Assembly (NCBI GenBank): GCA_934394855.1
Contig: CAKRRH010000009.1
Location: 1-60,898 of the forward strand
DNA: 60,898 bases
Direction: 5' to 3'
Source of the DNA: an uncultured Eubacteriales bacterium
GTDB lineage: Bacteria; Bacillota; Clostridia; Oscillospirales; Acutalibacteraceae
The translations under genes and the position numbers were made by a program. Of the stretch, positions 27,904-53,716 are shown piece by piece (within the stretch, counting starts at the first letter, position 1; each line of letters opens with the position of its first letter). The notes under the pieces were generated by a model. It did no database searches. It was not told the origin of the DNA and was given only the letters and a program-made list of their open reading frames with translations.

Positions 27904-29205
27904 TTATTCATCATTATTTGCACTCGGCTCCAATTTATAGAGCACATCGGCACTTTTTTCGCCGGAATAAAGTCCGGTCATTGAAAACGCAAGAAGCGAA
28001 AAAACAGACGTTTGAAGTCCGACAATTTCGCAATCGACCATTCCGTTGACGGCGATTGAAACGATTATTCCGCAAAGCAGGGCAAAATGCGGATTGTTTG
28101 TCGCGTAGCCGCAGTTTTTGAAAAGCAGAAGCCATTTTTTCAAGATGTAACCCGCAAGAATCAGCGAGCCGACAAGCCCATAATTATAGAGTGAATCGAG
28201 AATTATGTTATGAGCGTGCATTTTCCAGCCAAAATGCTTTCCCGTGAAGAGAATGTCAAATCCCTCTCTTGCAAAATGCTCCATGAATTTATGGTCGGAT
28301 TTCATCGAATCGTTTAACACGCCGAGCAGTCCGTGACCGAAAACGGGTCTGTCGAAAATGCCCCTGATTGCCATTTCCCAATAGGGTTTTCTTCCGTCGT
28401 AAGACACATCGATCTTGTCAAGTCTAAGTCCTGCAAATATATTGATATTCGGGAAGAAATACATCAGCAGTCCGAGCACCGCAACAAATGCGGAAAAGAT
28501 TCCGAGCAGCTTATATTCCCGTTTAAGCAGCAATATTATGAACAAACCCGAAAGCAAGCCTGCCCAGGGCATTCTGCCGCCCGATAAAATCATGCTCAGC
28601 GAATTAAGAAGTAGCGCCGGAATATATATTCTGCGGTATTTTGAAACGGTTATGATTCTGTATGTGCAAAACAGCAGCGCAAAAACGATAAAATATGAGT
28701 AATAAAGCGGATTTATGAAGGTAGATGAACAACGATATTCTTCATCCGCAAGCCGCCCGATCAAATATTCCGGAATGCTGTAAAGCGAAGCGATTATGCT
28801 GTATCCGATGAATATTGTAACCATATCTTCAAACGATTTTCGGGTTATATGCTGCATGAAATAGGTCATGCAAACACTTGCCGCAAAAACAAACGCAAGC
28901 GCCAGCAAACCGAGAAAATTCCGGCATATAACCGCAATCACGGCATTCAGAGCTAAAAAGAAAAACATCGGCTTATTTGAGCCGGTTCTGAAAATGTCCG
29001 CCGCAGCGTCCTTTCTGCACAGCAAATAGACGCCGATCGCAAATGTGCCGATAACCGAGGTAATCATGTTGGCAAAACACAAAACCAGCAATATGAATAT
29101 TGCTCTGAGCTCGTTGTCATATGTCCTCATTCGGGTAAAAAATCCGACTGCTGAAGCTTTTATAAACTGAAGAAAGGGGCTTTTTGCCGCTTTGCTTTCG
29201 CTCAT
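27904..29205 (-). CDS. Polytopic membrane protein, O-antigen ligase/Wzy-like
   Basis: About 10-12 TM helices with large loop; weak family call. Confidence 0.45.
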   Translation of the reverse strand: MSESKAAKSPFLQFIKASAVGFFTRMRTYDNELRAIFILLVLCFANMITSVIGTFAIGVYLLCRKDAAADIFRTGSNKPMFFFLALNAVIAVICRNFLGLLALAFVFAASVCMTYFMQHITRKSFEDMVTIFIGYSIIASLYSIPEYLIGRLADEEYRCSSTFINPLYYSYFIVFALLFCTYRIITVSKYRRIYIPALLLNSLSMILSGGRMPWAGLLSGLFIILLLKREYKLLGIFSAFVAVLGLLMYFFPNINIFAGLRLDKIDVSYDGRKPYWEMAIRGIFDRPVFGHGLLGVLNDSMKSDHKFMEHFAREGFDILFTGKHFGWKMHAHNIILDSLYNYGLVGSLILAGYILKKWLLLFKNCGYATNNPHFALLCGIIVSIAVNGMVDCEIVGLQTSVFSLLAFSMTGLYSGEKSADVLYKLEPSANNDE

Positions 29206-31700: not shown

Positions 31701-31964
31701 TTATTTACGAATACCGAGTTTTGCGATTATTGCACGGTATCTTTCAATATCATTTTTCTGAAGATATGCAAGAAGGTTGCGTCTGTGACCGACAATTTTG
31801 AGAAGGCCGCGGCGTGAATGATGATCCTTCGGATGCATTTTGAAGTGCTCGTTGAGTTCGTTGATTCTGTAAGTAAGAACAGCAATCTGAACTTCGGGAG
31901 AACCTGTGTCGCCTTCATGTGTTGCGTACTCTTTAATGATTTCGTTTTTCTTTTCCTGTGTCAT
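31701..31964 (-). CDS. rpsO: 30S ribosomal protein S15
   Basis: [42 protein letters not shown]... 87 aa; track ORF 5'-extended. Confidence 0.95.
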
Positions 31965-32212
31965 GATTAAATCACCTTTCTTAAATAGATAGTCCGCATA
32001 ACCGTACCTGTCGCTTATCAGGTGATACTGCGTAGAGCAGAAAACGCCAACGGGCACAGTAATGGGTAGTTTTTGCGCATGAGTCATAATATACACATAC
32101 GCATTTGATATTCTATCACATAAATCTAAATTTGTAAAGTGTTTTTTGCCATTTACATAAAATTTCACATTTTCAGACTGAAAATATTCAATATTAAATT
32201 CCAAATACGATG

Positions 32213-32250
32213 CAAAATCGGGTCGCCAAAAGACGACCCGATCAAAATTA
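32213..32250 (-). terminator. Terminator downstream of surface protein paralog A
   Basis: atcgggtcgccaaaagacgacccgat hairpin flanked by A/T runs. Confidence 0.6.
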
Positions 32251-32251
32251 A

Positions 32252-34723
32252 TTATTTCTTGCGGGATTTGATGATTACAAATCCTGCTGCCGCAGCAACA
32301 AACATTGCAGCGATAGGAGCAGCTGTTGCACCTGTGTCAGGCATTGAATCGCCGCCGAGATCATAATAGATTGCGATGAGTTCGCCGACCTTATCAAAGA
32401 GGCCGAGTTTTTCGAAGTAATCGCCGATCTGTGCAGGAGCATTTGTATATGCCTCTACGAATCTCTGCAAGAGTGCGAAGTTAGCAGCATTCTCATAGAG
32501 TGACGGGTCTGTTCCCGGGAGCTTTTTGTAAAGCTCATAGATTGCATCAAACTCTGACTGGTTGCCTGCAGCCTTTGTTGTTGTCGGAGCACCCTTTGCG
32601 TCTTTGCCCGGAACATATACTGCCGAATGCCAAATGTTGATGTCAGTCATACCGCAAGAGTTGCCCTTCGAGTCAACGTTTGCGTAGTTCATCGGTGAAA
32701 GTCTGACTAAAGTGATGTTGTCCGGGTTATATGCAACACCGTCTGTGTCCTTTGTCGGCAAATAGAGTGTGACTGTCTGACCGACATTGCACCATTTCTG
32801 TGCCTGCTCGTTCTGCATTTCGTCCTTCATGAGAATCATAAGGTCAACGATTGACGAACAGTTTTTCTTAGTTTCAGGATGCTTAGCGCTGTTCACTTTA
32901 ACATCAATTGCCAAGAAACCGAGACCTCTCGGATCGTTAGCATATGCATAGCCCTGTTTGATTGAGTTAGTCAGCTTCTTTGAAAGAGCTTCGGAGACTA
33001 CTGTTGATTTTCCGCTTGTATCATCTTTTCTTGATTTGAGCAACCAAGCTGCCTGATATTGCTTATTCTTTCTGGTCTTGCTGATCATTGTAACATCGCC
33101 GTCGTTGCCGAATACTTTCTGTTCGGCCGTGCACCATGTTTCAGCACCCCAATATTTATCCATTGCTTCTTCTGTGAAGTCATATGCATGGTAGCCTGCA
33201 CCGGGGTTGTTTTCAGCAGTTGTTGTAGCTTTTGTCGGAGCCTGTGTTTTGATTGTCATCGAAGTTGTCGGAGCAGACTCGTCAACAACTGTGATCGGTG
33301 AGAAGTAAGCAACCGGGCAAAGTGAAATTGCTTTTACGCCGGTACCATACTGGATTGTTGTTCCGTTTGCATCTGTAAGCGGATCGTTTTCGCCCTGTTT
33401 CTTATACTGAACCATGTTACCGTTTTCATCATAGTACCAATAGTTCTGCATTGTAAGACGAACAGCCTGGAGATCATTTTGCTTATAATTTGATAAATCA
33501 AATGTATATGTAACGGTTGTTCCGGGCTGCTGCCAAGCGTCAATAATCTTTTCGTAGCCCTTTGAGAATGTAACAAGCAAGATTTCAAGCTGAGCTGCAA
33601 CCGGCTTGTTATCTTTATCTACACAAGACTCAATGTATACTGTCATCTGAGCTTTGTGTGAACCGCCCTCCTGATTTGCAACTGCAAGCGCATAGTTGGA
33701 GGTGTCATGGTTAAATTTGTGGAATGTCTGGATCTGCTGACCGTAATTTCCTGCACGGTTTTCATATTTAACCCAACCCGGACCGCCGTTTTTCTTGAAC
33801 TTCGCTGTTCCGCCGAAGGTCGCACCGCCGTCGGTTGAATAGAGGATGTTGTCCGGTGCTCCGCCGTAATCCTGTCTGTAGTTAGAATCCCAGTTCACAA
33901 GGGTTGCTGTGGTGTCAAGTTTGCCGTCGCCGTCAGAATCTTTAACCTGAACATCCGGAACTTCCGGAACAGACGGATCGCCTTCAACTACAAATGCTGA
34001 AACAACTGCGCCCTTTCTTGACTGGTTCCAGTGATATACATCGATTTCCATTGACTTAACATCGTCAACGCTGTCCATGATAACAGAAACATCTTCATCA
34101 TTCTCATTTTTGTAAGAATATTTGAACGGGACCGTAACCTGTTTTGTGCAGGTCATGTCGAGATATGAAGTGTGAATCGTACGAACAGTGTCGTCGTTCA
34201 TGATGAGCTTTACGATGATCTGAGAGTCGATCTGAACATCTTTCTTAGTAACCGAATTTGTTACTCTGAGGATAGCCTGTGCAGACGGAGCGACCTGTTC
34301 AACCTTTGATTGGTCAAAAGCAACGCCCTTTTTCTCAGCTTCTGCTTTAGCTGCTTCAACATCAGCGGCATATTTCTCTGCAGCCTGTTTTTTTGCAATT
34401 TCAAAGGCTGCCTTGAAGTTGTCGTCAAGTTTCCACAATGTTTTAATACCGTAGATATACTCTTTTGTTTCAACGCCGAATGAAAAGTCGTCGTTATATG
34501 TCATATCTCCGGTTACTGTTGTATCCTTCTTGATGGTATCGAGCTCGCCTGCCTTATATGTACCAAAGCCCGTGAACGCATCTTTTGTAAATCTCTGCAT
34601 ATAAACCGGCTCGACTTTAGCGGTATCTTCTGCGGACGCAGAAACGCTTGCTGTGATTGCAACAGTTGCAACGAGCATTGTCAGAGCAAGAATAATGCTT
34701 ACGATTTTCTTGGTCATTTTCAT
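32252..34723 (-). CDS. Large secreted surface protein, paralog A (823 aa): signal peptide, uncharacterised ~700-aa module, C-terminal sortase-type sorting signal
   Basis: N-terminal [32 protein letters not shown]-terminal ...[34 protein letters not shown] (xPxTG-like motif, hydrophobic segment, basic tail). AGGAGG RBS. Confidence 0.7.
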
Positions 34724-34864
34724 AGTTGTGCCTCCTGTGTTGTTGGATAACGAGTATATTAACCGAATATACTTTGTTAATTTATTATATCTTAATTTTA
34801 AAATTTCGTCAATATGCCAATATGATAAAATCTATACAATATTTTATGTCATTTTTCACAAAAA

Positions 34865-34900
34865 AATCGACCCCGTTTTTTGTACGGAGTCGACTGACAA
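34865..34900 (-). terminator. Terminator after htrA
   Basis: Minus strand cgactccgtacaaaaaacggggtcgattttttt. Confidence 0.5.
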
Positions 34901-34924
34901 TATATATTGTATATTGCGATTTTT

Positions 34925-36727
34925 TTACCACAATGTATATTTTTGAGTGGTCTGCTGTTCGGACTGTGTCGAATAGCTTGATGTGCTTGCGTCCTCAAGC
35001 ATATTTGCAGTGAGCGTTTTATATGATTTAGTCGAAGCGATATATACCTTAACGGTCATTTTGTCGCCCGCCTTTGAATCGTCGATTATATCAAGCGCAA
35101 CATCGGCAGAGGTGATTTTGGTGCCGTTGATTTCGGTGATTATGTCGCCTTTTTTAAGTCCCGACGAATAGAGACTTGAGTCAATGTCGATCGACTGAAT
35201 GTAAAGCCCGCTCGGCATATCGTTGACAAGCGCCGCTGCCGCCGTGATTTCAGAATAGGTGATTCCGAGTCTTGCTCTTCCGACGACCTTTTTGTTCGCA
35301 ATCAGGCTCTTTGCCGTCTTGATTGCGTCATTTGACGGGATTGCAAAGCAAAGTCCCTCATAGCCGCTTACAACGATTTTCGACGAACTGATTCCGATCA
35401 CCTGTCCGTACATATTGACAAGCGCACCGCCCGAATTTCCGGAATTAAGCGCTGTGTCGGTCTGAATTACTCTCATGCTGTAATTGACCGTCTGACCGTT
35501 TATCGTATTTGAAAACGATATTCTTCTGCTCGGTGCAGAAATAATGCCTTTTGTTACTGTGCCTTTCAAGCCATAAGGCGAGCCGATTGCGATTACATCA
35601 TCGCCAGTTTCGATTTTTGACGAATCGGCGAATGTTGCCGGTGTCAGATTCTTTGCGCCGCTCATTTTAAGCACGCAAAGGTCGCTTCTGCTGTCGCCCG
35701 CTACATATGTTGCCTTGTAGCTTGTGCCGTCGTTGAGCGTGATGACAAATTTTGCATTCGGAATTTCCGAATAGATGTGGTCGTTTGAAATGATGTAGCC
35801 GCTTTTATCCATGATGACACCAGACGCGATTGCCGAATTATTGCTGTCGTCGCTGTAAACGGTGATGTTTACGACCGAGTCGGAAACCAGCTTTGAAACG
35901 CCGTCTGCGCTATATTTTCCGTCTTTGTCGGCAGTCACGCCGTCTTTTGACGGAACGGTGCCTTGCTGAATTACGACCGAATCATCATTTGAGCCGAGAT
36001 CATTCTGGCTGTTGTCATATCTCAAATCCGTGTTGCCGCCTGCGATGTAACCGATCGTCACTCCCATTGAAAGCAGAACCGCAACCGCAAGGATCACGCA
36101 AAATACCTTAAATCCCTTTTTGCCGCTCTTTGTTGGCTTTTGCGGAGCATAATTTTGTCGGGGCGCTTGATTATAATTGCCCTGCGGCGCCTGCTGTGCA
36201 TAATAATTCTGATAAGCTTTCGGCTGAGGATTGCCATACTGCGGATTCTGATATTGCGGATTATTGTATTGTGCGCCTTGAGCGGCGTTTGGTCTTACCG
36301 GGTCAAAGCTGCGGGTATTAAATCCGCCGTTTTGGTTTGGTGCAGAATATCCGCCGTTTATATTTCCTTGGGCATTTGTGCCAAAGGGAGAATTAACATT
36401 ATTCTGTGCATTTGTACCGACCCCGCTGTTTGAATATGTCGGTGCGGTATAGGTCGGGCGTGTAAACTGCGGCGGCGTTTGATCCGCCTTCGCATTATTT
36501 GCACCATCATTTGCAGTATTTGCACTCTCATTTGCGCCGCTGTCCTGTTTTGCGGCATTATCTGCGTTATCCGTGGGCTTTGCCGCAGTTGCCTTGTCAT
36601 TTGTCGGCGGTGTTTGCGCCGTTGTATCAACCGGAACGGAATTTGAATTGATGCCCTGCTTATTATTTTCGGGTTCATTTACCGTGCCGTCCGCCTGACG
36701 GTTATCATTTTTCTCAAATTCACTCAT
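34925..36727 (-). CDS. htrA: HtrA/DegP-family serine protease with PDZ domain and long Q/N/P-rich N-terminal region
   Basis: Catalytic His (SNDHIY), Asp (DLCVLK), Ser (GNSGGALV); PDZ with KKGDIIT; about 190-aa low-complexity N-terminus then one TM. Confidence 0.85.
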   Translation of the reverse strand: MSEFEKNDNRQADGTVNEPENNKQGINSNSVPVDTTAQTPPTNDKATAAKPTDNADNAAKQDSGANESANTANDGANNAKADQTPPQFTRPTYTAPTYSNSGVGTNAQNNVNSPFGTNAQGNINGGYSAPNQNGGFNTRSFDPVRPNAAQGAQYNNPQYQNPQYGNPQPKAYQNYYAQQAPQGNYNQAPRQNYAPQKPTKSGKKGFKVFCVILAVAVLLSMGVTIGYIAGGNTDLRYDNSQNDLGSNDDSVVIQQGTVPSKDGVTADKDGKYSADGVSKLVSDSVVNITVYSDDSNNSAIASGVIMDKSGYIISNDHIYSEIPNAKFVITLNDGTSYKATYVAGDSRSDLCVLKMSGAKNLTPATFADSSKIETGDDVIAIGSPYGLKGTVTKGIISAPSRRISFSNTINGQTVNYSMRVIQTDTALNSGNSGGALVNMYGQVIGISSSKIVVSGYEGLCFAIPSNDAIKTAKSLIANKKVVGRARLGITYSEITAAAALVNDMPSGLYIQSIDIDSSLYSSGLKKGDIITEINGTKITSADVALDIIDDSKAGDKMTVKVYIASTKSYKTLTANMLEDASTSSYSTQSEQQTTQKYTLW

Positions 36728-38289
36728 TTGTCCGAATCTCCTTTTTCGTTTTCATCGCTTTCGATTATCTCAGCGTCATATGTCTTGTTTTCCTGTGATG
36801 AATATTTGTGACCTGTCGGGCGAAAACGCTTATCCGACTTGGCCTCATTCACCACGATCTGTGCCGGATTCTGAACATCATTGGGCAAAAGCACCGTAAA
36901 TTTGGTATATTCGTTCAAAACGCTTTCTGCCGTGATTTGTCCGCCGTGAAGTCCGACGATCATTTTTACAATATACAATCCGAACCCCATGCCGGTTTTA
37001 TCATTGCTTCGGCTTCGGTCGGTTTTGTAAAATCTCTCAAAAATTCGGCTGAGCTCAACGCTTGTCAGTCCTTCACCCGAATTTTTAATCGCAATTTCAA
37101 CATTATTTTGTTTGTCCTCTGACACCCGAACCTCAATGTAACCGCTCTCGGGTGTAAATTTGATTGCGTTTTCAACCAAATTGTAAAGCACCTGATAGAT
37201 TAGGTCGCTGTCGGCAAAGAGCATAATCTTTTCGGTATCCTCAAGCCCTCTTAACTCGATTTTTTTATCCTCGATCCGCTTTTCAAATGATAACATGATT
37301 CTAAGAAGCAAATCGGAGACATTGAATGTTGAACGGTTGAGTTTAACATTGTCGTTTTCAAGCCGTGAGAGTTGGAGCATTGAGTTTACAAGCCGCGAAA
37401 GACGCTTTGTTTCGTCCGACACGATTCTCATATATTTAGGATAGCTTTCTTTCGGAATCGTTCCGTCAAGCATTCCGTCAACAAAGCCGGAAATTGTGGT
37501 CATCGGCGTTTTCAACTCATGAGATACGCTCGAAATGAAGCTTCGGCGCATTTCCTCAAGCTGGCTCAATGATTTTGACATTCGGTTAAACGCCTCGACA
37601 AGCGCACCAATCTCATCGTTTCGTCCCGTTGACTGAATTTGGACAAACTCACCGTTTTCCATCTTCTTTGCCGCCTGCGCCATCTGACGAAGCGGACGGG
37701 TCATTTGCGACGAAATGATATATACCGCAATGAATGCGAGCATTAAGATAAGCAGCGAGCAGATAAGCAGCATTTTGAACATCTGGCTGACCGCAACGCT
37801 TGCGCCTTCAAGCGGTGTTGACGCAAAGACCGCTCCGACCGCCGAATTTTCCACAACAATCGGAGTTGACACCGTGTAGCAGGCACTTTGATAAATTCCG
37901 CCCATCGTGCCGGAATATGAGTTGTCGCCGCTAAGCGCCCGATTCATGTATTTTTTGTCAATCACATTTGTTTTATGCCGACAATCGGTTTCTTCATCAG
38001 AGCATAAATAGCAGTTGCCGCTTACATCCGCAACATAAATATCCGCACCGATTATTCGGCTGATAACCTTAACGGTGCTGTCAAGCTCGCCGCGAAAATC
38101 TTTTCCCGACACAAGCGTGCTTGCGGAAAAATCGGAAATCGTGTGAACATTGTTGCTGAGCAGCTCCTCTTTATCTTCACGCCACTGATTTTTCGTAAAC
38201 ACAAGCAAAATGCTTCCCAAAATCACAAAGCACAGCAAAAGAATGCTTGCAATTATGGTGAAATATTTATAAAATATGCTTTTTTGCAT
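36724..38289 (-). CDS. Sensor histidine kinase (2 TM, HAMP, HisKA, HATPase_c)
   Basis: H-box SHELKTPMT, N/G boxes; 4-nt overlap with htrA. Confidence 0.85.
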   Translation of the reverse strand: MQKSIFYKYFTIIASILLLCFVILGSILLVFTKNQWREDKEELLSNNVHTISDFSASTLVSGKDFRGELDSTVKVISRIIGADIYVADVSGNCYLCSDEETDCRHKTNVIDKKYMNRALSGDNSYSGTMGGIYQSACYTVSTPIVVENSAVGAVFASTPLEGASVAVSQMFKMLLICSLLILMLAFIAVYIISSQMTRPLRQMAQAAKKMENGEFVQIQSTGRNDEIGALVEAFNRMSKSLSQLEEMRRSFISSVSHELKTPMTTISGFVDGMLDGTIPKESYPKYMRIVSDETKRLSRLVNSMLQLSRLENDNVKLNRSTFNVSDLLLRIMLSFEKRIEDKKIELRGLEDTEKIMLFADSDLIYQVLYNLVENAIKFTPESGYIEVRVSEDKQNNVEIAIKNSGEGLTSVELSRIFERFYKTDRSRSNDKTGMGFGLYIVKMIVGLHGGQITAESVLNEYTKFTVLLPNDVQNPAQIVVNEAKSDKRFRPTGHKYSSQENKTYDAEIIESDENEKGDSDK

Positions 38290-38336
38290 TTAAAACTGTC
38301 CCCCAAAGGGTATTTTTATTCCGTACAAATCGAAAA

Positions 38337-39038
38337 TCAATTATATTCGGGCTGTTTTGTTTCAAATTTATAGCCGACGCCCCAAACGGTTTTCAAGCAC
38401 CATTTGTCCGACACGCCCTCGAGCTTTTCACGAAGTCTTTTAACGTGAACATCAACTGTTCTCGAATCGCCGTAATATTCAAATCCCCAAACCTCGTCAA
38501 GCAGCTGGTCACGGGTATATACCTTATTCGGATTGCTTGCAAGATGATAGATGAGTTCAAGCTCTTTCGGCGGTGTGTCGATCTGCTTGCCGTCTACAAT
38601 CAATTCATAGTTGGTAAGATTGATTACGAGCTTATCATATTCAACCCGCTTGATTCCGTTATTTTCCGAAACGCCGCTTCTGCGAAGAACGGCTTTGATT
38701 CGTGCAATTACTTCTTTTGCGTCAAACGGCTTTACAATATAGTCGTCCGCACCGAGCTCAAGGCCCAAAACCTTGTCAAAGGTTTCGCCCTTAGCGGTGA
38801 TCATGATGATCGGCACCTGGGAGGTTTTGCGAATCTCTCTGCAAACCTGCCAGCCGTCAAGTTTCGGCATCATTACATCAAGCAAGATCAGCGACGGATT
38901 GAATTTTTCAACCGTGTCGAGCGCTTCCTGTCCGTTATGACATACGCACACCTCATATTTTTCTTTTTCAAGGTAAAGGCTCAAAAATTCGCAGATGTTG
39001 CTGTCGTCGTCAACGACCATTATTTTTACATCACTCAT
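38337..39038 (-). CDS. OmpR-family response regulator
   Basis: MSDVKIMVVDDD receiver; winged-helix C-domain; track start extended. Confidence 0.85.
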   Translation of the reverse strand: MSDVKIMVVDDDSNICEFLSLYLEKEKYEVCVCHNGQEALDTVEKFNPSLILLDVMMPKLDGWQVCREIRKTSQVPIIMITAKGETFDKVLGLELGADDYIVKPFDAKEVIARIKAVLRRSGVSENNGIKRVEYDKLVINLTNYELIVDGKQIDTPPKELELIYHLASNPNKVYTRDQLLDEVWGFEYYGDSRTVDVHVKRLREKLEGVSDKWCLKTVWGVGYKFETKQPEYN

Positions 39039-39126
39039 TATAAATACAGTCCTTTCAGATAGTATATATTTTTTACACAAAAATTTAGTTTACAAATGAA
39101 TTATAACTCAAAACGGCGCAAATTGG

Positions 39127-39154
39127 TGAACATTATTTGAACACATTTGTGATT
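39127..39154. promoter_or_regulatory. Direct repeats TGAACA-N5-TGAACA-N5-TGTGAT at 11-bp phasing in divergent RR/secA promoter region
   Basis: gTGAACAttattTGAACAcatttGTGAtt. Nearby inverted repeat TTGTTCATAA...TTATGAACAA at 39169-39215. Confidence 0.35.
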
Positions 39155-39408
39155 TTTTGCAAATTTCTTGTTCATAAGTTGGTAATTTTGCAAAAATTAT
39201 GAACAAAACGACGGCAATTCTGATTTCTTTAAAAATTTGAATTTTGTCGTCATGGGTCATATTATATTACATTATATAACAAAGCAATTTCAAATCAACC
39301 GCATTTTTCCAAATGTTCAAAATTTATTCTTTTATTTTCACAGAAAATGTGCTACAATGATTGTAATTTGATAAATTTGCATCATGCAATATGAAAGGGT
39401 TGATAAAT

Positions 39409-42150
39409 ATGAGTCTGAGAGATCTTTTGGTTGGCAATTACAGCAAACGCCAGCTTAAAAAAATCGAGCCGATCAAAAACCGAGTTTTGGCGCTTGAAGA
39501 CAAATATAAAAAATATACCGACGAACAGCTTAGAGAATGCACAAAAAGCTTTAAGGACAAGGTTCAGACAGGCACAACGCTTGACGAGATTTTGCCGGAC
39601 GCATTTGCGGTTTGCCGAGAGGCTGCCGACCGTGTGCTCGGAATGCGCCCCTATCCGGTTCAGGTAATCGGCGGAATCGTTTTGCATCAGGGCAGAATTG
39701 CCGAGATGAAAACAGGCGAGGGTAAAACCTTGGTTGCAACAATGCCGGCATACCTTAACGCGCTCAGCGGCAAGGGCGTTCACATTGTAACCGTAAACGA
39801 CTACCTTGCAAAGCGTGACTCGGAATGGATGGGTAAATTATATCGCTTTTTGGGACTATCCGTCGGACTGATCGTTCATGATTTGACATCGGAACAGCGC
39901 AAAGAGGCATATAACGCGGACATTACATATTGCACAAACAACGAGCTTGGCTTTGACTATCTTCGTGATAACATGGTCACCTATAAAGAGGACAAGTCTC
40001 AGCGCGGCCACAGCTTTGCAATCGTTGACGAGGTTGACTCGATTTTGATTGATGAAGCAAGAACACCGCTCATCATTTCGGGTCAAGGCGAAAAATCGAC
40101 CGAGCTTTACACAAGAGCCGACAAATTTGCCCGTTCTCTTCGCTGCGTCAAGGTTCGCCAAACCGACGCAAAGGTTGACAACGACGAGGAATATTCAAAC
40201 GGCGACTACATCGTAGACGAAAAGGCGAAAACCGCAACCTTGACCGCAAGCGGTATCTCAAAAGCCGAGCAATATTTCGGAATTGAAAATTTGAGCGATT
40301 CCGAAAACCTCACGATCGCACATCACATCAACCAGGCAATCAAGGCTCACGGCATTATGCAGCGTGACATCGACTATGTTGTTAAAGACGGCGAAGTTAT
40401 CATTGTTGACGAATATACGGGTCGACTGATGTTCGGCCGCCGCTATAATGAAGGACTTCATCAGGCAATCGAGGCAAAAGAGGGCGTTAAAATCGCAAAT
40501 GAATCAAAGACACTTGCGACGATCACCTTCCAAAACTTCTTCCGTCTCTATGATAAGCTTTCGGGTATGACCGGTACGGCAATGACCGAATCACAGGAAT
40601 TCGGCGAGATTTATCATCTTGACGTTGTAGAGATTCCGACAAACAAGCCGCTTGCAAGAATCGATATGCCCGATGTTGTTTACAAAACAGAAAAGGCGAA
40701 GTTTAATGCGGTAATCGACAACATAATCGAATGCCACGAAAAAGGTCAGCCGGTGCTTGTCGGCACAATTTCGATTGAAAAGTCGGAATTGCTTTCAAAA
40801 ATGCTGAAGGCTAAAAAAATACAGCATAATGTGCTTAATGCAAAGAACCACGAGCGGGAGGCGGAGATCATTGCCCAGGCGGGCAAATTCGGCTCGGTAA
40901 CGATCGCCACCAACATGGCAGGCCGTGGTACGGATATTATTCTCGGCGGCAATGCCGAATATATGGCGAAAGCCGAGATGAGAAAGCGTGATTTTTCGGA
41001 CGAGCTGATTGCCGAGGCAACAGGCTTTGCCGAAACAGACAGCGAAGACATTCTCAATGCAAGAAATGTTTTCAAAGAGCTTGAGAGCAAATATAAACAA
41101 GAGCTTGCACCCGAAACCGAAAAGGTTTTGCAGGCCGGCGGATTGTTCATCATCGGCACAGAGCGTCATGAATCACGACGCATTGACAACCAGCTCCGCG
41201 GTCGTGCAGGCCGTCAGGGCGATGTCGGCGCAAGTAAATTCTATGTATCGCTCGAAGACGATTTGATGAGATTGTTCGGCGGTGAGCGAATTTACAACAT
41301 GATGGATTCGCTCAATGTTGACGACGACACACCGCTTGAGATGAAAATGCTTTCGAAATCGATCGAGGGCGCTCAGCAGAAGATTGAGCTTCGCAACTTT
41401 ACTCAGCGTAAAAATGTCCTTGAATATGACGATGTAATGAATGTTCAGCGTACGATCATCTATAACGAGCGCAACAAGGTGCTTGACGGCGACGATCTCC
41501 ATGATACTATTATCAAGATGATGAACGAATGCATTTCGGCAACCGTTTCACAATATCTCACAGGTGAGAGTGCAGACGATTGGAATTTTGACGGACTCAA
41601 AGCAAACCTTTCAACATGGCTGCCGTGTGACGATATAATCGACGAACAGCAAAAGGATTTGAATGCGGTCACGGTTGAAAGCGTAACGGACGCTGTTAAT
41701 GACTTTGCAATGAAGAAATATGAAGCCAAGGAAGAAGAATACGGCAGCGAGCTCATGCGTGAAATCGAGCGTGTAATTTTGCTTCGTTCGGTTGACACTC
41801 ACTGGATGGATCACATTGACGCAATGGATGAACTGCGAAACGGAATCAGACTTCGTGCATACGGTCAGCATGATCCGGTTGTAGCATATCGCAACGAAGG
41901 CTATGATATGTTCACCGCAATGAACGAATCGATTCGTGAAGAAACCACAAAGCGCTTGCTTAATGTTCAGGTAAGACGAGATGAGGATGTTAAGCGTGAA
42001 AAGGTTGCAAAAGTTACCTCGGAATCGGGCGCAGATGACGGTTCGCTGAAAAAACAGCCTGTCAAGGTTGCCAAAAAACCGGGTCGAAATGATCCGTGTC
42101 CGTGCGGCAGCGGCAAAAAATATAAAAAATGCTGCGGCAGAGACGAATAA
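39409..42150 (+). CDS. secA: Preprotein translocase subunit SecA
   Basis: [19 protein letters not shown]-terminus, DEAD motor, C-terminal zinc finger [14 protein letters not shown]. Start ATG 39409, 10 nt after AAAGGG. Confidence 0.95.
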
Positions 42151-42164
42151 CATATTTGCAGAAC

Positions 42165-42201
42165 AAAAGAGAAGTACATTTTAAAATGTACTTCTCTTTT
42201 T
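42165..42201. terminator. secA terminator
   Basis: aaaagagaagtacattttaaaatgtacttctcttttt. Confidence 0.8.
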
Positions 42202-42294
42202 ATATTGCATATTATCCCACTTTTTTGCCGTGAAGAACAGCCGTGGAAAACAGAAGATGATCTGTCCGTTTTCTCTTGTCGGATATAATTCCGC

Positions 42295-42468
42295 TCAAAT
42301 CAGCCGCATTTTAAGCCGATCGGCAATAATCCTGCTGCTGTTTCCGGGACCGCAGCCCAAATCGAATATGGTTTTCGGCTCGATGTCAATTCGGGCAAAA
42401 AGAACCTTTGCCGGCTGCGAACGCTGATCGATGAATTTTTATTGTAAATTTGCGCTCCGATCTGCCAT
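42295..42468 (-). pseudogene. Decayed 5' fragment of a class-I SAM-dependent methyltransferase (trans-aconitate methyltransferase/Tam-like)
   Basis: Minus-strand translation MADRSANLQ*KFIDQRSQPAKVLFARIDIEPKTIFDLGCGPGNSSRIIADRLKMRLI*: in-frame stop after 9 codons and truncation about 55 codons in. DLGCGPGNS is the canonical motif I. Confidence 0.6.
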
Positions 42469-42502
42469 TTTTAATGCTTCCTTTTAAATTACACCGAATA
42501 AT

Positions 42503-44821
42503 TTAATCCCAGGGTGCTACTTTCCATCCTGCAATGTGCTTTCTTAAAATAAGCACATCTTTCATGTTGATAGCCTCATCCATATTAAGATCGCAATTTG
42601 TCTTGTTTATCTCAATGTTATAGCCTGCGATGTACTTTCTCAAGAAAAGGACATCTTTCATGTTGATGCTGTCATCACCGTTTGCATCGCCGTAAACTGC
42701 GTCGGGATTATCACTGGATTTACCCGGAACATATATTGCCGAATAGCGAACATTAATGTCGGTCACGCCGCAAGCGACGCCATTTTCACCGGCATTTGCA
42801 TAGTTCATTACGGCAAGCTTGATGAGTTGAATGTTATCGGGGTCATAAGCAACGCCGTTTTTGTCTTTTGTCGGAATCGTAAGAATTCCCGACTGTCCGA
42901 CATTAAGCCATTTCTCCGCCGTTACATTTTGAGATTCATCTTTCATTATAAATGAAACTTCGCAAAGCACTGCGCAATCTTTATTGGTTTCGGGATGTTT
43001 AGCGCTGTTTACTTTAACATCAACAGCCAATACACCCAGACCGTTCGGGTCGTTTGCATATGCGTAGCCCTGTTTGATAGAATTGATTAGCTGCTTTGAA
43101 AGAGCCTCGGATACAACGGTTGTGTTGCCAGTAGCCTCGTCTTTTCGGCTCCTTAGCAGCCAAGCCGCCTGATATTGCTTATTATTTTTGCCCTTGCTGA
43201 TCATTGTAACATCGCCGTTATTGCCAAACGATTTTGTTTCAGCCGAGCTTGATGAAGAATTGCCCCAATATTTATCCATTGCCCCTTCTTTGAAGTCATA
43301 TGCATGATAGCCTGCGCCGGGGTTATAGTCAGGTGTTGTTACATCATCTGTAGGTTTTGTCGGTGTAGTCGGATTGTTGTCGACTATCGTGATCGGTGAG
43401 AAATAAACAACAGGGCAGATTGAAATTGCCGTTACACCCGTGCCATAGTTGATTTCTGTTCCGTCAGCATTTGTAACAGGGTCGTTCTCGCCCTTTTTCT
43501 TATATTGAACCATGTTGCCGTCTTCGTCATAATACCAATAGTTCTGGACTGTAAGACGAACACCTGCAAAGTCGTTTTGCTTATAATTTGACAGGTCAAA
43601 TGTATAGGTTTTTGTTGTTCCGGGCTGCTGCCAAGCCTCAATTATCTGTTCATATCCCCTTGAGAATGTAACAAGCATAATACTGAGCTGAGCCGCAACC
43701 GGCTTGTTATCTCTGTCCACACATGACTCAAGATATACTGTTATCTGAGCTTTGTGTGAGCCGCCCTCTTGATTTGCAACCGCAAGACCGTAATTTGCTG
43801 TGTCATGGTTTAATTTATGATATGTCTGAATCTGCTGACCGCAGTTTCCCAAACGGTTCTCATATTTAATCCAGCCGGGTCCGCCGTTTTTCTTGAACTT
43901 CTCTGTTCCGCCGAATGTTTCACCACCGTCTTTTGAATAGAGAATACTATCCGGCGCTCCGCCGTAATCCTGTCTGTAATTTAAGTCCCAATTTACAAGT
44001 GTTGCCGTTGTGTCAAGTTTGCCGTCGCCGTCTGAATCTTTGACCTGAACATCCGGAACTTTCGGCAAAGTCGGATCGCCCTCTACAACAAATGCAGAAA
44101 CAACCGCGCCCTTCTTTGACAAATTCCAATGATATACATCAATCTCAAGCGATTTAACATCGTCAACGCTGTCCATGATTGCGGTGACATATTCGTCATT
44201 GTTGTCTTTATACCTATATTTGAACGGAATTGTAACTTCTTTTGTGCAGGTCATGTCAAGATATGATGTATGAATCGCGCGAACGGTATTATCATTCATG
44301 ATGAGCTTGACAACGATCTGAGTATCGATCTGAACATTCTTTTTGGTAACCGAATTCGTTACTCTGAACAGTGCCTTTGCGGACGGGGCAACCTGTTCAA
44401 CCTTTGATTGGTCAAATGCAACGCCCTTTTTCTCCGCCTCCGCTTTAGCCGCTTCAACATCAGCGGCATATTTATCCGCCGCCTGTTTTTTAGCAATCTC
44501 AAAAGCCGCCTTGAAATTGTCATCGAGCTTCCACATCGTTTTTATTCCAAAGATATAATCATTGGTTTCAACGCCGAACGAAAGATCGTCGTTATATGTC
44601 ATATCGCCGGTTACCGTCGTATCCGATGTAATGACATCGATCTCTCCCTTTTTATATGTGCCAAAGCCTGTGAATGCATCTTTTGTAAATCTCTGCATAT
44701 AAATCGGCTCGACTTTAGCGGTATCTTCTGCGGATGCAGAAACGCTTGCCGTGATTGTGACGGTTGCAACAAGCACCGTCAGAGCAAGAATAATGCTCAC
44801 GATTTTTTTAGTTACTTTCAT
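42503..44821 (-). CDS. Large secreted protein, paralog B (772 aa): same module as paralog A, C-terminal type-I dockerin
   Basis: Signal peptide [31 protein letters not shown]. About 85% identity to paralog A over first ~470 aa. C-terminal duplicated dockerin segments DANGDDSINMKDVLFLRKYIAG and DLNMDEAINMKDVLILRKHIAG. Confidence 0.85.
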   Translation of the reverse strand: MKVTKKIVSIILALTVLVATVTITASVSASAEDTAKVEPIYMQRFTKDAFTGFGTYKKGEIDVITSDTTVTGDMTYNDDLSFGVETNDYIFGIKTMWKLDDNFKAAFEIAKKQAADKYAADVEAAKAEAEKKGVAFDQSKVEQVAPSAKALFRVTNSVTKKNVQIDTQIVVKLIMNDNTVRAIHTSYLDMTCTKEVTIPFKYRYKDNNDEYVTAIMDSVDDVKSLEIDVYHWNLSKKGAVVSAFVVEGDPTLPKVPDVQVKDSDGDGKLDTTATLVNWDLNYRQDYGGAPDSILYSKDGGETFGGTEKFKKNGGPGWIKYENRLGNCGQQIQTYHKLNHDTANYGLAVANQEGGSHKAQITVYLESCVDRDNKPVAAQLSIMLVTFSRGYEQIIEAWQQPGTTKTYTFDLSNYKQNDFAGVRLTVQNYWYYDEDGNMVQYKKKGENDPVTNADGTEINYGTGVTAISICPVVYFSPITIVDNNPTTPTKPTDDVTTPDYNPGAGYHAYDFKEGAMDKYWGNSSSSSAETKSFGNNGDVTMISKGKNNKQYQAAWLLRSRKDEATGNTTVVSEALSKQLINSIKQGYAYANDPNGLGVLAVDVKVNSAKHPETNKDCAVLCEVSFIMKDESQNVTAEKWLNVGQSGILTIPTKDKNGVAYDPDNIQLIKLAVMNYANAGENGVACGVTDINVRYSAIYVPGKSSDNPDAVYGDANGDDSINMKDVLFLRKYIAGYNIEINKTNCDLNMDEAINMKDVLILRKHIAGWKVAPWD

Positions 44822-45117
44822 AGTTATACCCCCAATGTTGTTGGATAGTGAAATATATTGACTTAATATACTTCTTAGGCTAATTATATCTTAATAATTG
44901 TATTTCGTCAATATAGCAATATAGTAAAATAAATACAATGCTTTATGTTGTATTTTACCAAAGAAATAGCTTGAATACATACAAAATCAACTATAATTTT
45001 AATCAAATGTTATATATGTATCGGTCGATATAATATACATCACGGCGATTGGGGGAGCAAAAAGACCGCGGCTTATAAATGTGAATACACTTAAAACCGC
45101 AGTCGATTTAATGCTGA

Positions 45118-51048: not shown

Positions 51049-51227
51049 AACCTGCCTCCGTTTCGTTTAGGGGCAGCCGCACTGACGGTCAAACATGAAT
51101 CATGAACGACCGTCGGTGCGTTTTTTCATATAACCGCATTTTGCAATCATTATTTATATTGCAATTTGGCTCTTTCGCTGATATAATAAACTCATCAAAA
51201 ATATATCGGAAGGGACTACATATTATA

Positions 51228-52448
51228 ATGAAAAGCTCATATCACTCAAAATCGCTGTTAGCGTCATTATTATGCCTTGCACTCATAATCTGCACCGCCT
51301 TTTCAGGCTGCGCACCGTCTGCAAGAGATAAAAGCGGTGCAAATTCCGATGAGAATTCATCAAGTCCATATAAAGCATATAACGACACGCAGAAGTTTTT
51401 GCAAAACATCAAGGTCGGCTGGAATCTCGGAAACACCTTTGAAGCCACCGGCAGATGGGGTGAAGAATGGAACGATTCATACAGCGTGAACGACGTGGAA
51501 ACGGGTTGGGGAAACCCGACCACCACAAAAGCCATGTTTGACAAGGTGAAAAAGACAGGATTTAATGCGGTGAGAATTCCTGCGACATGGTATCGTCACA
51601 CCGATGTTGAAAATGCGACATATACCATAAAAAAGGATTATCTAGAACGAATCAAGCAGGTCGTTGACTTTGCAATAGACAACGATATGTATGTCATCCT
51701 CAATATGCATCATGACGATAAGGATTGGCTCGACATTTCGGCAAACGATGAAAAATGGGCGGCAGTCAAAAATGAATATGCCCAAATTTGGACTCAAATC
51801 GCCGAGCAGTTTAAAAATTATGACGAACGCCTCATTTTAGAGGGTGCAAACGAAATCGTGCTCTACACCGGCGTTGACGAAAACGGCAACAAGCAATATG
51901 ACTGGTGGGGTCAGGACGACCAAACCTTTGAGCGTGTAAATGAATTGTATCAGGTATTTGTCGATACTGTCAGAAAGTCGGGCGGCAAAAACGATAAACG
52001 CTATTTGATGATTCCGACCTACGGCGCACAGTGGTATCAGCACCAGATCGAGAAAATCATAATACCGAACGGCGACGAACGTGTAATCGTCGATGTCCAT
52101 TGGTACACCGACGAAGCGGACGAAACAAAGGTACGGGATACGCTTAAAGTAATCTATGATTATTGCTCATATTTTGAAATGCCGGTTGTTTTGGGCGAAT
52201 GCGGAATCCGAAAGGCAATGACCGAGGAGCAAAAGCAAAACTGGGCAAATAATTATATCAAAATTGCCTCAAACATGGGTCTTAGGTGCTTCATTTGGGA
52301 CGACGGCGGAGATTATCAGGTGCTTGACCGAAACACTGTCAGCTGGGTATCGGACAGCTTTGTCGAGTCAGTTGTCAAAAATGCCGTCGATGTCGGATCA
52401 GTCCCTGAGCCGACAAGTGAAGCATTTGATGAAATCGACAGCGAATAA
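51228..52448 (+). CDS. Glycoside hydrolase family 5 lipoprotein (endo-beta-1,4-glycanase)
   Basis: Lipobox LIICTAFSGC; GH5 motifs GWNLGNTFEA, NEP-type catalytic acid (EGANE), nucleophile GECG; track start extended. Confidence 0.8.
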   Translation: MKSSYHSKSLLASLLCLALIICTAFSGCAPSARDKSGANSDENSSSPYKAYNDTQKFLQNIKVGWNLGNTFEATGRWGEEWNDSYSVNDVETGWGNPTTTKAMFDKVKKTGFNAVRIPATWYRHTDVENATYTIKKDYLERIKQVVDFAIDNDMYVILNMHHDDKDWLDISANDEKWAAVKNEYAQIWTQIAEQFKNYDERLILEGANEIVLYTGVDENGNKQYDWWGQDDQTFERVNELYQVFVDTVRKSGGKNDKRYLMIPTYGAQWYQHQIEKIIIPNGDERVIVDVHWYTDEADETKVRDTLKVIYDYCSYFEMPVVLGECGIRKAMTEEQKQNWANNYIKIASNMGLRCFIWDDGGDYQVLDRNTVSWVSDSFVESVVKNAVDVGSVPEPTSEAFDEIDSE

Positions 52449-52477: not shown

Positions 52478-53716
52478 ATGAAACGATATTTTAGTATATT
52501 GCTGTGCTTGTCAATGCTGTTGTCGCTGATGCTTTGCGGCTGCGGCGACAATAATGACGCTCAGCCGACCACGATCAAGGCAACGCAAACATCAACCGCA
52601 ACGGTTGCGGCAACAACGGTTGTGACAACAAAAGCAACAGCCGCAAAAACTACCGAAGAATATATTCCCGATGAGGTTGAAAAAACCACGCAAAAGCCTA
52701 AATTGACCGAGGCAATGAAATTTGCGCAAAAGATAAAATGCGGGTGGAACCTCGGAAACACGCTTGAAGCCACAGGCAGAAGAAGCGGAACATTGCCAGA
52801 AAAATATTCGGTCACCGACATCGAAACCGGTTGGGGCAACCCGAAAACCACAAAAGCAATGTTTGACAAGGTAAAATCGGCAGGCTTTAACGCGGCACGA
52901 ATCCCGGTTTCATGGTGCAGATTCATCAACAAAAAGAACGGCAAATATGTCATTCGTGAAGATTTTCTGAAAAGAGTCAAGGAAGTGGTAAACTATGGCT
53001 ACAACAACGGAATGTATGTCATAATCAACATTCACCACGATGACGCTTATGAAGAATGGCTGCATATTTCGGGAAGCGATTCGGAATTTTCATCAGTCAA
53101 AACCGAATTCAAGCAAATTTGGACGCAAATCGCCAACTATTTCAAAAGCTATGGCGAACGGTTGATTTTTGAAATGGCAAATGAGCCGATCGGCTATTAT
53201 GACGACGGCACGGGCGATTGGAACGGCGGCGAGCCGCAATATTTTGTTCGGCTTGACGAGCTGTATAAAATATTTGTAAACACGGTTCGTGCAACGGGCG
53301 GCAACAATAAATCACGCTATTTGATGATTCCGACCTACGGTGCTCAAAGCGGCAGTCAGATCTATTATGTAAAAATCCCGAACAACGACGCTCATGTGCT
53401 TGTTGACATTCATTATTACACCGACGGAACAAATCAGGGTGCGCTTGAAGATAAATTCAAGCAAATCGCCGAATATGGCAGAGAAAACGGGATTGCCTTC
53501 ATTCTCGGCGAATGCGGAATCAGAGCAAACTCGGATCCCGACACTCTTTCAATGTGGACGCTTGCATTTGTCCGAACAGCGTCGGAATATGGCTTGCGGT
53601 GTTTTGTTTGGGACGACGGCGGAGATTATCAGGTGCTCGACCGAAAAGGACTCACTTGGGTCAACAGCGCATATGTCAGTTCGTTTGTAAAAAATGCGGT
53701 CAAAATGTCAAAATAA
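52478..53716 (+). CDS. Glycoside hydrolase family 5 lipoprotein (tandem paralog)
   Basis: Lipobox LMLCGCG; GWNLGNTLEA, MANEP, GECG. Confidence 0.8.
   Translation: MKRYFSILLCLSMLLSLMLCGCGDNNDAQPTTIKATQTSTATVAATTVVTTKATAAKTTEEYIPDEVEKTTQKPKLTEAMKFAQKIKCGWNLGNTLEATGRRSGTLPEKYSVTDIETGWGNPKTTKAMFDKVKSAGFNAARIPVSWCRFINKKNGKYVIREDFLKRVKEVVNYGYNNGMYVIINIHHDDAYEEWLHISGSDSEFSSVKTEFKQIWTQIANYFKSYGERLIFEMANEPIGYYDDGTGDWNGGEPQYFVRLDELYKIFVNTVRATGGNNKSRYLMIPTYGAQSGSQIYYVKIPNNDAHVLVDIHYYTDGTNQGALEDKFKQIAEYGRENGIAFILGECGIRANSDPDTLSMWTLAFVRTASEYGLRCFVWDDGGDYQVLDRKGLTWVNSAYVSSFVKNAVKMSK

Follow-up and report, generated by a model that had tools for sequence, protein, structure and literature searches.

Two paralogous genes on the minus strand of contig CAKRRH010000009.1 from an uncultured human-gut Eubacteriales bacterium (Clostridia) were analysed. 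The window is the whole stretch of DNA under study, 60,898 nt long, and all coordinates of the two genes, called copy A and copy B, refer to it. Both genes encode secreted proteins which share an array of three domains (D1, D2 and D3) and continue into different C-terminal ends, a helical segment with a sorting-type signal in copy A and a dockerin in copy B. The reading given slightly better than an even chance is that the two proteins are non-catalytic glycan-binding surface adhesins, in which the same three-domain array is displayed by two routes. An earlier note on this DNA had reported both open reading frames (ORFs), and both were present with the expected strand and length:

32252..34723, minus strand: copy A gene, 823 aa; signal peptide, D1, D2, Pro/Thr-rich (PT) linker, D3, helical segment, sorting-type signal
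42503..44821, minus strand: copy B gene, 772 aa; signal peptide, D1, D2, PT linker, D3, short linker, dockerin
34631..34723, minus strand: copy A Sec signal peptide, residues 1-31 (MKMTKK, hydrophobic core, SASA then EDT), read from the translation

The two proteins were compared by BLASTP, which revealed 78% identity across 709 residues and nothing significant beyond. The identity by region was 90% for the signal peptide, 86% for D1, 83% for D2, 29% for the PT linker and 68% for D3. The earlier figure of about 85% over the first ~470 residues is therefore right, and the signal peptides are nearly identical as had been described. No lipobox Cys was seen in the translation of the copy A signal peptide, whose cleavage site was placed from the translation and not by a prediction tool. 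The homology stops directly after the shared boundary VYVPGK at the protein and DNA level alike. In accordance with the earlier note, the two genes are genuine paralogs, homologous up to VYVPGK and unrelated thereafter, which end in different anchors.

The duplication is old, with a dS of about 0.94, and purifying selection was observed on both copies, the dN/dS being 0.08 for D1, 0.13 for D2 and 0.17 for D3, as compared to 0.72 for the PT linker. In a second strain or species, found in independent human-gut metagenomes including Hadza samples, the gene order dnaK-dnaJ-(copy B)-secA-response regulator-histidine kinase-htrA-(copy A) is the same. The counterparts in the two strains are 97% (A-A') and 96% (B-B') identical against 78% for A-B, and together with the shared gene order this indicates that the duplication predates the strain split. 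A protein identical to copy A (P0001) is present in a Logan assembly and the exact copy B protein on 12 public contigs. In a collection of 15 billion proteins, the 90%-identity clusters of the DnaK and DnaJ of this organism contain no other member, and the species was not recovered by a family-pattern scan of 185,579 species-representative genomes, though its copy might alternatively miss the scan patterns. The lineage is therefore very poorly sampled.

The 5' flanks of the genes were also compared. About 130 bp of shared flank had been claimed, and an identity of 74% was found over positions -130 to -1, dropping to 48% further upstream; the neutral expectation is 46% given the dS of 0.94 (binomial P ~1e-10). 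Because 74% stands against a neutral 46%, the promoter and untranslated region (UTR) are still under constraint. The same promoter was found in both copies, which agrees with the claim that promoter and UTR were carried along in the duplication. In each upstream region the best promoter-like site is TTGACG-N17-TATAAT, placed some 60 nt ahead of the ATG and in matching positions in the two genes. Copies A and B and both orthologs, four sequences from two strains, carry it without change.

34724..34853, minus strand: copy A conserved 5' flank; AT-rich upstream block, promoter, ~55-nt leader with ribosome-binding site AGGAGG
44822..44951, minus strand: copy B conserved 5' flank, from the comparison with copy A
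34784..34812, minus strand: copy A promoter TTGACG-N17-TATAAT (11 of 12), promoter-like site scan
44883..44911, minus strand: copy B promoter TTGACG-N17-TATAAT (11 of 12), promoter-like site scan
34865..34895, minus strand: terminator after the upstream htrA-like gene, 12-bp stem then T-run
32213..32243, minus strand: terminator-like hairpin after copy A, GATCGGGTCG-N8-CGACCCGAT-TTTT, read from the sequence
34753-34773 and 44852-44872, minus strand: 7-bp inverted repeat GTATATT-N5-AATATAC just downstream of the -10 box, in both leaders

The terminator after the htrA-like gene makes copy A its own transcription unit. Since strong promoter-like sites and terminators are present, both copies are probably monocistronic and well expressed. 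The hairpin after copy A was read by eye and is absent from the output of the consensus terminator scan. It is placed in the spurious N-terminal part of an over-extended ORF of 167 aa (31701-32204, minus strand), of which just the C-terminal ~89 residues resemble ribosomal protein S15. The substitutions in the inverted repeat of the copy B leader would keep G-U pairs, a hint of an RNA 5' hairpin; the repeat was dropped as an RNA structure as its fold energies are weak and not significant (z -1.1, -2.2 and +0.6), and an Rfam scan of the window gave no match.

Domain array and family

The part shared by both proteins had been described as one module. The N-terminal homology of the two copies stands, while the single unit was resolved into three tandem domains, two of which are homologous repeats. 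The profile-profile comparison by hhalign relates D2 to D3 with a probability of 98.8% (E 6.5e-17); a homology of D1 to D2 or D3 was not established by the same method (probability 17-26%). The structure of copy A was predicted with AlphaFold2 (AF2) on an alignment of 18 full-length relatives, giving a mean predicted local distance difference test score (pLDDT) of 77.8 with domain cores at 80-95. A model built from a 5-sequence alignment had a pLDDT of 54 and was set aside. The domains were delimited by profile hidden Markov models (HMMs) as follows, with the AF2 model for copy A:

33974..34606, minus strand: copy A D1, residues 40-250, beta-sandwich with inserted long helix (103-131); HMM envelope, pLDDT about 85-95
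33278..33916, minus strand: copy A D2, residues 270-482; alignments, HMM envelope, pLDDT about 80-92
33212..33277, minus strand: copy A PT linker, residues 483-504, predicted disordered, pLDDT below 50
32606..33211, minus strand: copy A D3, residues 505-706, D2-type repeat ending at VYVPGK; HMM envelope, hhalign, pLDDT about 78-90
44072..44704, minus strand: copy B D1, residues 40-250; D1 HMM
43376..44014, minus strand: copy B D2, residues 270-482; D2 HMM
42722..43327, minus strand: copy B D3, residues 499-700; D3 HMM

D2 is the best-conserved core of the family, with the motifs AWQQPGTT and QNYWYYD in the alignments. The motif DSDGDGKLD, which had been taken for a calcium-loop feature of the module, is present at residues 262-270 of copy A. 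It lies in the linker between D1 and D2 and is absent from more distant relatives; it is a lineage-specific linker motif rather than a feature of the family.

The AF2 model gave each domain a discrete beta-sandwich/jelly-roll, the fold of carbohydrate-binding modules (CBMs), with an inserted alpha-helix. The fold assignment of the predicted domains is clear, a type-B/C CBM-like beta-sandwich. The full-length model was also compared by Foldseek, where multi-domain arrays with low template-modelling (TM) scores dominate the results; the matches are to further arrays of tandem sandwiches, among them CBM22-CBM22, SGBP-B and reelin repeats. A viral-library fold search returned just generic jelly-roll arrays at TM 0.1. 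At the sequence level D1, D2 and D3 had zero Pfam or NCBIfam matches across the 33 family members scanned, which places them in no existing CBM family of these libraries, and PDB chains gave no match with either the single sequence or the family profile. The module is thus unrecognised as had been stated, no characterised CAZy or CBM family matching the N-terminal part in the Pfam, NCBIfam and PDB searches.

The idea that the module is unique to this locus did not hold. An exhaustive profile HMM search of 1.84 billion representative proteins revealed 37 relatives with mosaic architectures, 22 of them at E <= 1e-30. When the protein, a profile of 5 sequences or one of 18 was run in word-indexed searches, only the same four proteins came back; the exhaustive search alone brought out the family. 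Three weak hits of the exhaustive search, P0038-P0040, were rejected as members, since they arose from a query alignment in which the FN3/basic tail of P0004 had been wrongly placed on D3. The members were sorted by their sequences, Pfam matches and domain HMMs into these classes:

Class 1: D1-D2-D3, helical segment and xxxTG/hydrophobic/basic tail; 13 relatives plus copy A
Class 2: D2-like N-domain, D2, FN3 and basic C-terminal module; about 10, including L001 and L002 from species-representative genomes
Class 3: short proteins with two D2-like domains and a dockerin; three
Class 4: P0030, two D2-like domains, BspA-type leucine-rich repeats (LRR_5), Dockerin_1 and GH16; one

One further member carries a cohesin and another an LRR. 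In the relatives the domain is thus fused to GH16, dockerin, cohesin, LRR or FN3. As a contiguous part of a carbohydrate-active enzyme, the setting expected of a CBM, it is seen in one distant relative, P0030; copies A and B have no catalytic module. At the sequence level the domain family is new and very sparsely sampled. Relatives are labelled Acutalibacteraceae or Eubacteriales.

The direction of the anchor swap was examined from the same relatives. The CT HMM matched all 13 complete or partial A-like relatives (E 1e-35 to 1e-50). The combination of D1-D2-D3 with a dockerin was seen just in copy B and its 96%-identical ortholog P0002, leaving out P0049 (719 aa, in the 90% cluster of copy B). 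A and B group as sisters within the cassette-bearing proteins when a distance tree is drawn, the next closest relatives being below 50% identity. Because all complete three-domain relatives carry the helical and xxxTG cassette and A and B are nested among them, the A-type cassette is by parsimony ancestral, and the dockerin of copy B is a derived replacement, made at the VYVPGK junction after the duplication.

In the sister class (P0004, P0008, P0012-P0017, P0022, L001 9515-11383 and L002 9299-11455) the FN3 domain and a highly basic C-terminal module replace D3 and the anchor. The basic module follows the pattern ...KKLKSGKKYYVRVRAY..GKKVYGKWS..K and is found again beside cohesin-like or FN3 arrays in the unrelated P0038-P0040; it may serve as a third type of anchor that binds the wall non-covalently. 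The genomic context of L001 and L002 consists of housekeeping genes and is uninformative. The EF-G-like protein has 70% identity to its L001 counterpart.

C-terminal ends of the two copies

The C-terminal end of copy B was searched against Pfam, where residues 710-763 matched Dockerin_1 (PF00404) with an E-value of 1.7e-11 and 44.6 bits against a cut-off of 22.9, over profile positions 1-56 of 57.

42533..42694, minus strand: copy B dockerin, residues 710-763, two repeats of calcium loop plus helix; Pfam PF00404

Both Ca-loop repeats are present, DANGDDSINMKD and DLNMDEAINMKD. A dockerin consists of two tandem segments of ~22 residues, each of which has an EF-hand-like Ca-binding loop (D-x-[ND]-x-[DN]...D) and then a helix, and these segments were found in copy B as DANGDDSINMKDVLFLRKYIAG and DLNMDEAINMKDVLILRKHIAG. 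It is the sole ORF of the window with dockerin repeats. The earlier note had spoken of a type-I dockerin on the cellulosome; the dockerin is supported by Pfam, while "type I" and "cellulosome" are assumptions, as the name of the Pfam model assigns no cohesin specificity. Dockerin systems of related gut Clostridia serve several substrates and also build amylosomes and mucinolysomes (PMC12663171, PMC12997984).

Copy A ends after VYVPGK in an anchor-type tail as had been reported, with a length of 117 aa instead of the ~85 aa first given. The tail consists of a conserved helical segment of ~70 aa, predicted as four to five helices in the AF2 model, and a sorting-type signal of 29 aa:

32354..32566, minus strand: copy A helical segment, residues ~720-790; AF2 helices 722-788, CT HMM
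32255..32341, minus strand: copy A sorting-type signal, residues 795-823; MPDTG, 20 hydrophobic residues, KSRKK

MPDTG occupies residues 795-799 of 823 in the context DSMPDTG, and a transmembrane helix was predicted at 802-822 (AF2). Copy A is the sole ORF of the window with such a tail. The signal has the generic tripartite layout of sortase substrates, that is a pentapeptide ending in TG, a hydrophobic segment of ~20 residues and a basic tail, and the protein also starts with a signal peptide. Clostridial sortase substrates have been recognised by xPxTG at 17-45 residues from the end, a transmembrane segment and >=2 basic residues, and the SrtB sortase of C. difficile cleaves (S/P)PXTG peptides between T and G (PMC4155245). 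Judged from this signal, copy A is more likely a sortase substrate than a protein with a plain membrane anchor or one that takes another sorting route. Of the covalent cell-wall attachment claimed earlier, the tripartite signal stands and the attachment itself is no more than probable: the signal fails the curated models, only TG is conserved in the family, and neither the window nor the 5-8 kb past each end contains a sortase gene.

A doubtful though serious alternative is that copy A is no sortase substrate, its tail being a permanent membrane anchor or an xxxTG cassette handled by a different, undescribed sorting enzyme, with the helical segment as a wall-spanning stalk. The signal had no match to PF00746 or TIGR01167, and against NF033846 (Rumino_NPXTG) it reached 16.6 bits, below the cut-off of 23.5. 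The weak best matches are to the non-canonical models Rumino_NPXTG and GVDTG_CTERM. The motif varies within the family as MPDTG, GPDTG, EVDTG, DVDTG, SPSTG, SPATG and YGTGD; just the TG and a following AxxAP are conserved, giving the consensus [P/V]xTG[A/D]xxAP, and the Pro is replaced in several members (EVDTG, DVDTG, YGTGD). NVQTG remained uncleaved by C. difficile SrtB in vitro (PMC4155245). In every case the motif comes after the conserved helical segment, an arrangement that plain LPXTG proteins do not usually show. On the other side, the tripartite layout and the C-terminal spacing are exactly as in sortase signals, a clostridial sortase cleaves xPxTG variants (PMC4155245), the scissile pair TG is the very part that is conserved, and sortase genes are seldom linked to their substrates.

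Function of the array and genomic neighbourhood

Substrate binding is the best reading of the array, because the predicted fold is the beta-sandwich fold of CBMs. The glycan-binding reading draws on this CBM-type fold, on the tandem arrangement of the domains, on the partners of the relatives (GH16, dockerin and cohesin, the modular company typical of CBMs) and on a pair of GH5 lipoprotein genes in the window. By binding a polysaccharide, probably a glycan of the plant beta-glucan or hemicellulose type, the array would most likely keep the cell and its enzyme complex on the substrate. Copy A keeps the ancestral cassette of helical stalk, [P/V]xTG, hydrophobic segment and basic tail, by which it would stay with the cell that makes it; a clostridial-type sortase probably cuts behind the Thr and joins the protein to peptidoglycan, or else the tail acts as a C-terminal membrane anchor. 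Copy B lost the cassette at the VYVPGK junction and gained a dockerin, which would give non-covalent recruitment to a scaffoldin cohesin. Both genes would stand alone, driven by the same strong sigma-70-type promoter.

Several points weigh against this reading, along with the results on the sorting signal given above. The same beta-sandwich/jelly-roll fold was returned by the fold searches for MAM domains, adhesins, phage tail proteins and viral capsids, and no single CBM family stands out, the identities being 5-15%. The fold model itself depends on an alignment of 18 sequences. Neither the window nor the 5-8 kb past each end yielded a cohesin gene. The neighbours of A and B are the housekeeping genes dnaK/dnaJ, secA, htrA and pnp, and there is no adjacent or fused CAZyme. 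The paralogy, the three domains, the identity of the dockerin, the predicted fold, the direction of the swap, the purifying selection and the conserved promoter are shown by the analysis; glycan binding, the ligand, sortase processing, cohesin binding and high expression are inferred.

A further proposal, put forward tentatively, is that D2/D3 founds a new CBM family limited to a few poorly sampled gut Oscillospirales, and that the helical stalk/[P/V]xTG cassette is a distinct sorting signal served by a dedicated sortase subclass. If that were true, the pair would be a natural experiment in which one glycan-binding array is shown on the wall and on a scaffoldin alike, and the cell and the enzyme complex are thereby targeted to the same substrate.

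It is rather unlikely that the domains are adhesion or structural modules with no carbohydrate binding, serving host or microbial protein binding, cell-cell aggregation or an abundant surface coat, with the dockerin copy decorating a scaffoldin. The fold also occurs in MAM domains, the gingipain adhesin domain, reelin repeats and phage tail/baseplate proteins. The genes are stand-alone, with strong promoters and housekeeping neighbours, as is often the case for major surface proteins, and the relatives join the domain with BspA-type LRR and FN3, which are typical of protein-binding adhesins.

That the array is a cryptic enzyme, for example a jelly-roll glycoside hydrolase or polysaccharide lyase, is improbable. 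In its favour, D2 has many invariant polar residues (E365, D369, D409, Q398, Q426 and N427), and GH16, GH11 and PL7 are among the jelly-roll folds. That copy B is a decaying or non-functional duplicate which acquired its dockerin by chance has a minimal probability and is effectively refuted by selection and conservation, since against the gene relic just downstream, a sign of past rearrangement at the site, stand an intact reading frame, the dN/dS of 0.08-0.17 over the shared domains, two intact dockerin Ca-binding loops that pass the Pfam threshold, a conserved promoter, and a 96%-identical ortholog with the same dockerin at the same locus of another strain besides the 12 contigs with the exact protein.

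The surroundings of the two genes were also inspected:

51102-52448 and 52478-53716, plus strand: tandem paralogous GH5 (PF00150) genes, 6-9 kb from copy B
42295-42435, minus strand: gene relic between copy B and secA
42164-42197: perfect 13-bp palindromic hairpin AGAGAAGTACATT-N4-AATGTACTTCTCT, a T-run on each strand, in the gap on which secA and copy B converge
34925-36727, minus strand: HtrA-like Trypsin_2 + PDZ protease, just upstream of copy A
27904-29205, minus strand: Wzy_C/O-antigen-ligase-like membrane protein, between aspS and pnp

The signal peptides of both GH5 proteins are of the lipoprotein type (...AFSG|C and ...LCG|C). Both proteins lack a dockerin, and their nearest solved homologs are GH5_4-type endoglucanases, xyloglucanases and beta-1,3-1,4-glucanases (mixed-linkage glucanases). 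The GH5 lipoproteins, copy A and copy B make three surface-anchoring modes in about 20 kb. The relic comprises ~47 in-frame codons with no start codon, encodes ...KFIDQRSQPAKVLFARIDIEPKTIFDLGCGPGNSSRIIADRLKMRLI* and matches a SAM-dependent (Tam-like) methyltransferase in its N-terminal part and motif I. It suggests a past deletion or rearrangement at the site of the derived dockerin copy. The hairpin at 42164-42197 is likely a bidirectional terminator, in which case copy B would have a 3' UTR of ~300 nt including the relic.

The HtrA-like protease has an unusually long N-terminal low-complexity region of ~200 aa, rich in Q/N/P/Y (NPQYQNPQYGNPQP...), before its transmembrane segment. Its gene is co-oriented with the response-regulator/histidine-kinase pair, and the kinase overlaps it by 4 nt. 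The Wzy_C-like gene may point to a role in surface glycopolymers or protein glycosylation close to the genes for the surface proteins. The spore-formation genes spoIIAA, spoIIAB and sigF lie just past the window end.

Comparison with known systems

Every functional element of the pair is already of a known kind, that is signal peptide, CBM-like sandwiches, dockerin, sortase-type signal and enzyme-free binding proteins in cohesin-dockerin systems, and the mechanism of directly anchored or docked non-catalytic binding proteins is well established in ruminococci. With its clean change of anchor between two old paralogs, the pair is a neat example of evolution. The pair records how a modular surface system evolves, a dockerin having replaced the ancestral anchor while promoter, signal peptide and binding array were kept under purifying selection, and it offers matched constructs of cell-wall and scaffoldin display of one module. 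If the binding is true, the domains would form a new CBM-like family which is invisible to current CAZyme and cellulosome annotation pipelines, as nothing in Pfam, NCBIfam or PDB matches them. Its carriers are bacteria known just from metagenomes, including those of the Hadza.

The signal of copy A resembles other clostridial sorting signals, the (S/P)PXTG of C. difficile SrtB and Rumino_NPXTG, in having xPxTG 29 residues from the C-terminus, a hydrophobic segment, a basic tail and a signal peptide. It differs in that its first motif residue is Met, the curated models failed, the family consensus is looser and the helical segment always precedes. The domains differ from the beta-sandwich CBMs (CBM6, 11, 22, 27, 29, 30, 51, 61 and others) and from Bacteroides SGBP-B by an identity of 5-15% with no sequence-profile match. 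Each domain of A and B adds an inserted alpha-helix, and carbohydrate binding is here a prediction from the modelled fold.

Among dockerin-bearing proteins, Sas6 of R. bromii and CttA of R. flavefaciens would be the nearest precedents in function. Sas6 consists of CBM26, CBM74 and a dockerin (bioRxiv 10.1101/2022.11.20.514607). Like copy B, it is an enzyme-free dockerin-bearing glycan-binding protein of a human-gut Oscillospirales, recruited to a cell-surface complex (bioRxiv 10.1101/2022.11.20.514607; PMC12663171), if the glycan-binding reading of copy B is correct. It differs in having established CBM families and a known starch specificity, whereas the A/B domains belong to no CAZy, Pfam or PDB family by sequence.

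A comparison was also made with CttA of R. flavefaciens, which has two CBMs and an X-dockerin and is bound to the sortase-anchored ScaE (PMC4266597). PDB and Pfam searches gave no sequence similarity to CttA; the likeness lies in the plan of a non-catalytic secreted protein with tandem CBM-type modules that had no prior family assignment and a C-terminal dockerin, which ties the cell to its substrate, and in a system whose final wall attachment is given by a sortase-type signal (PMC4266597). CttA has two modules with an X-module-dockerin dyad and is attached to the wall indirectly via ScaE, whereas here the same array occurs in two paralogs, one with its own wall or membrane signal and one with a plain dockerin without an X-module.

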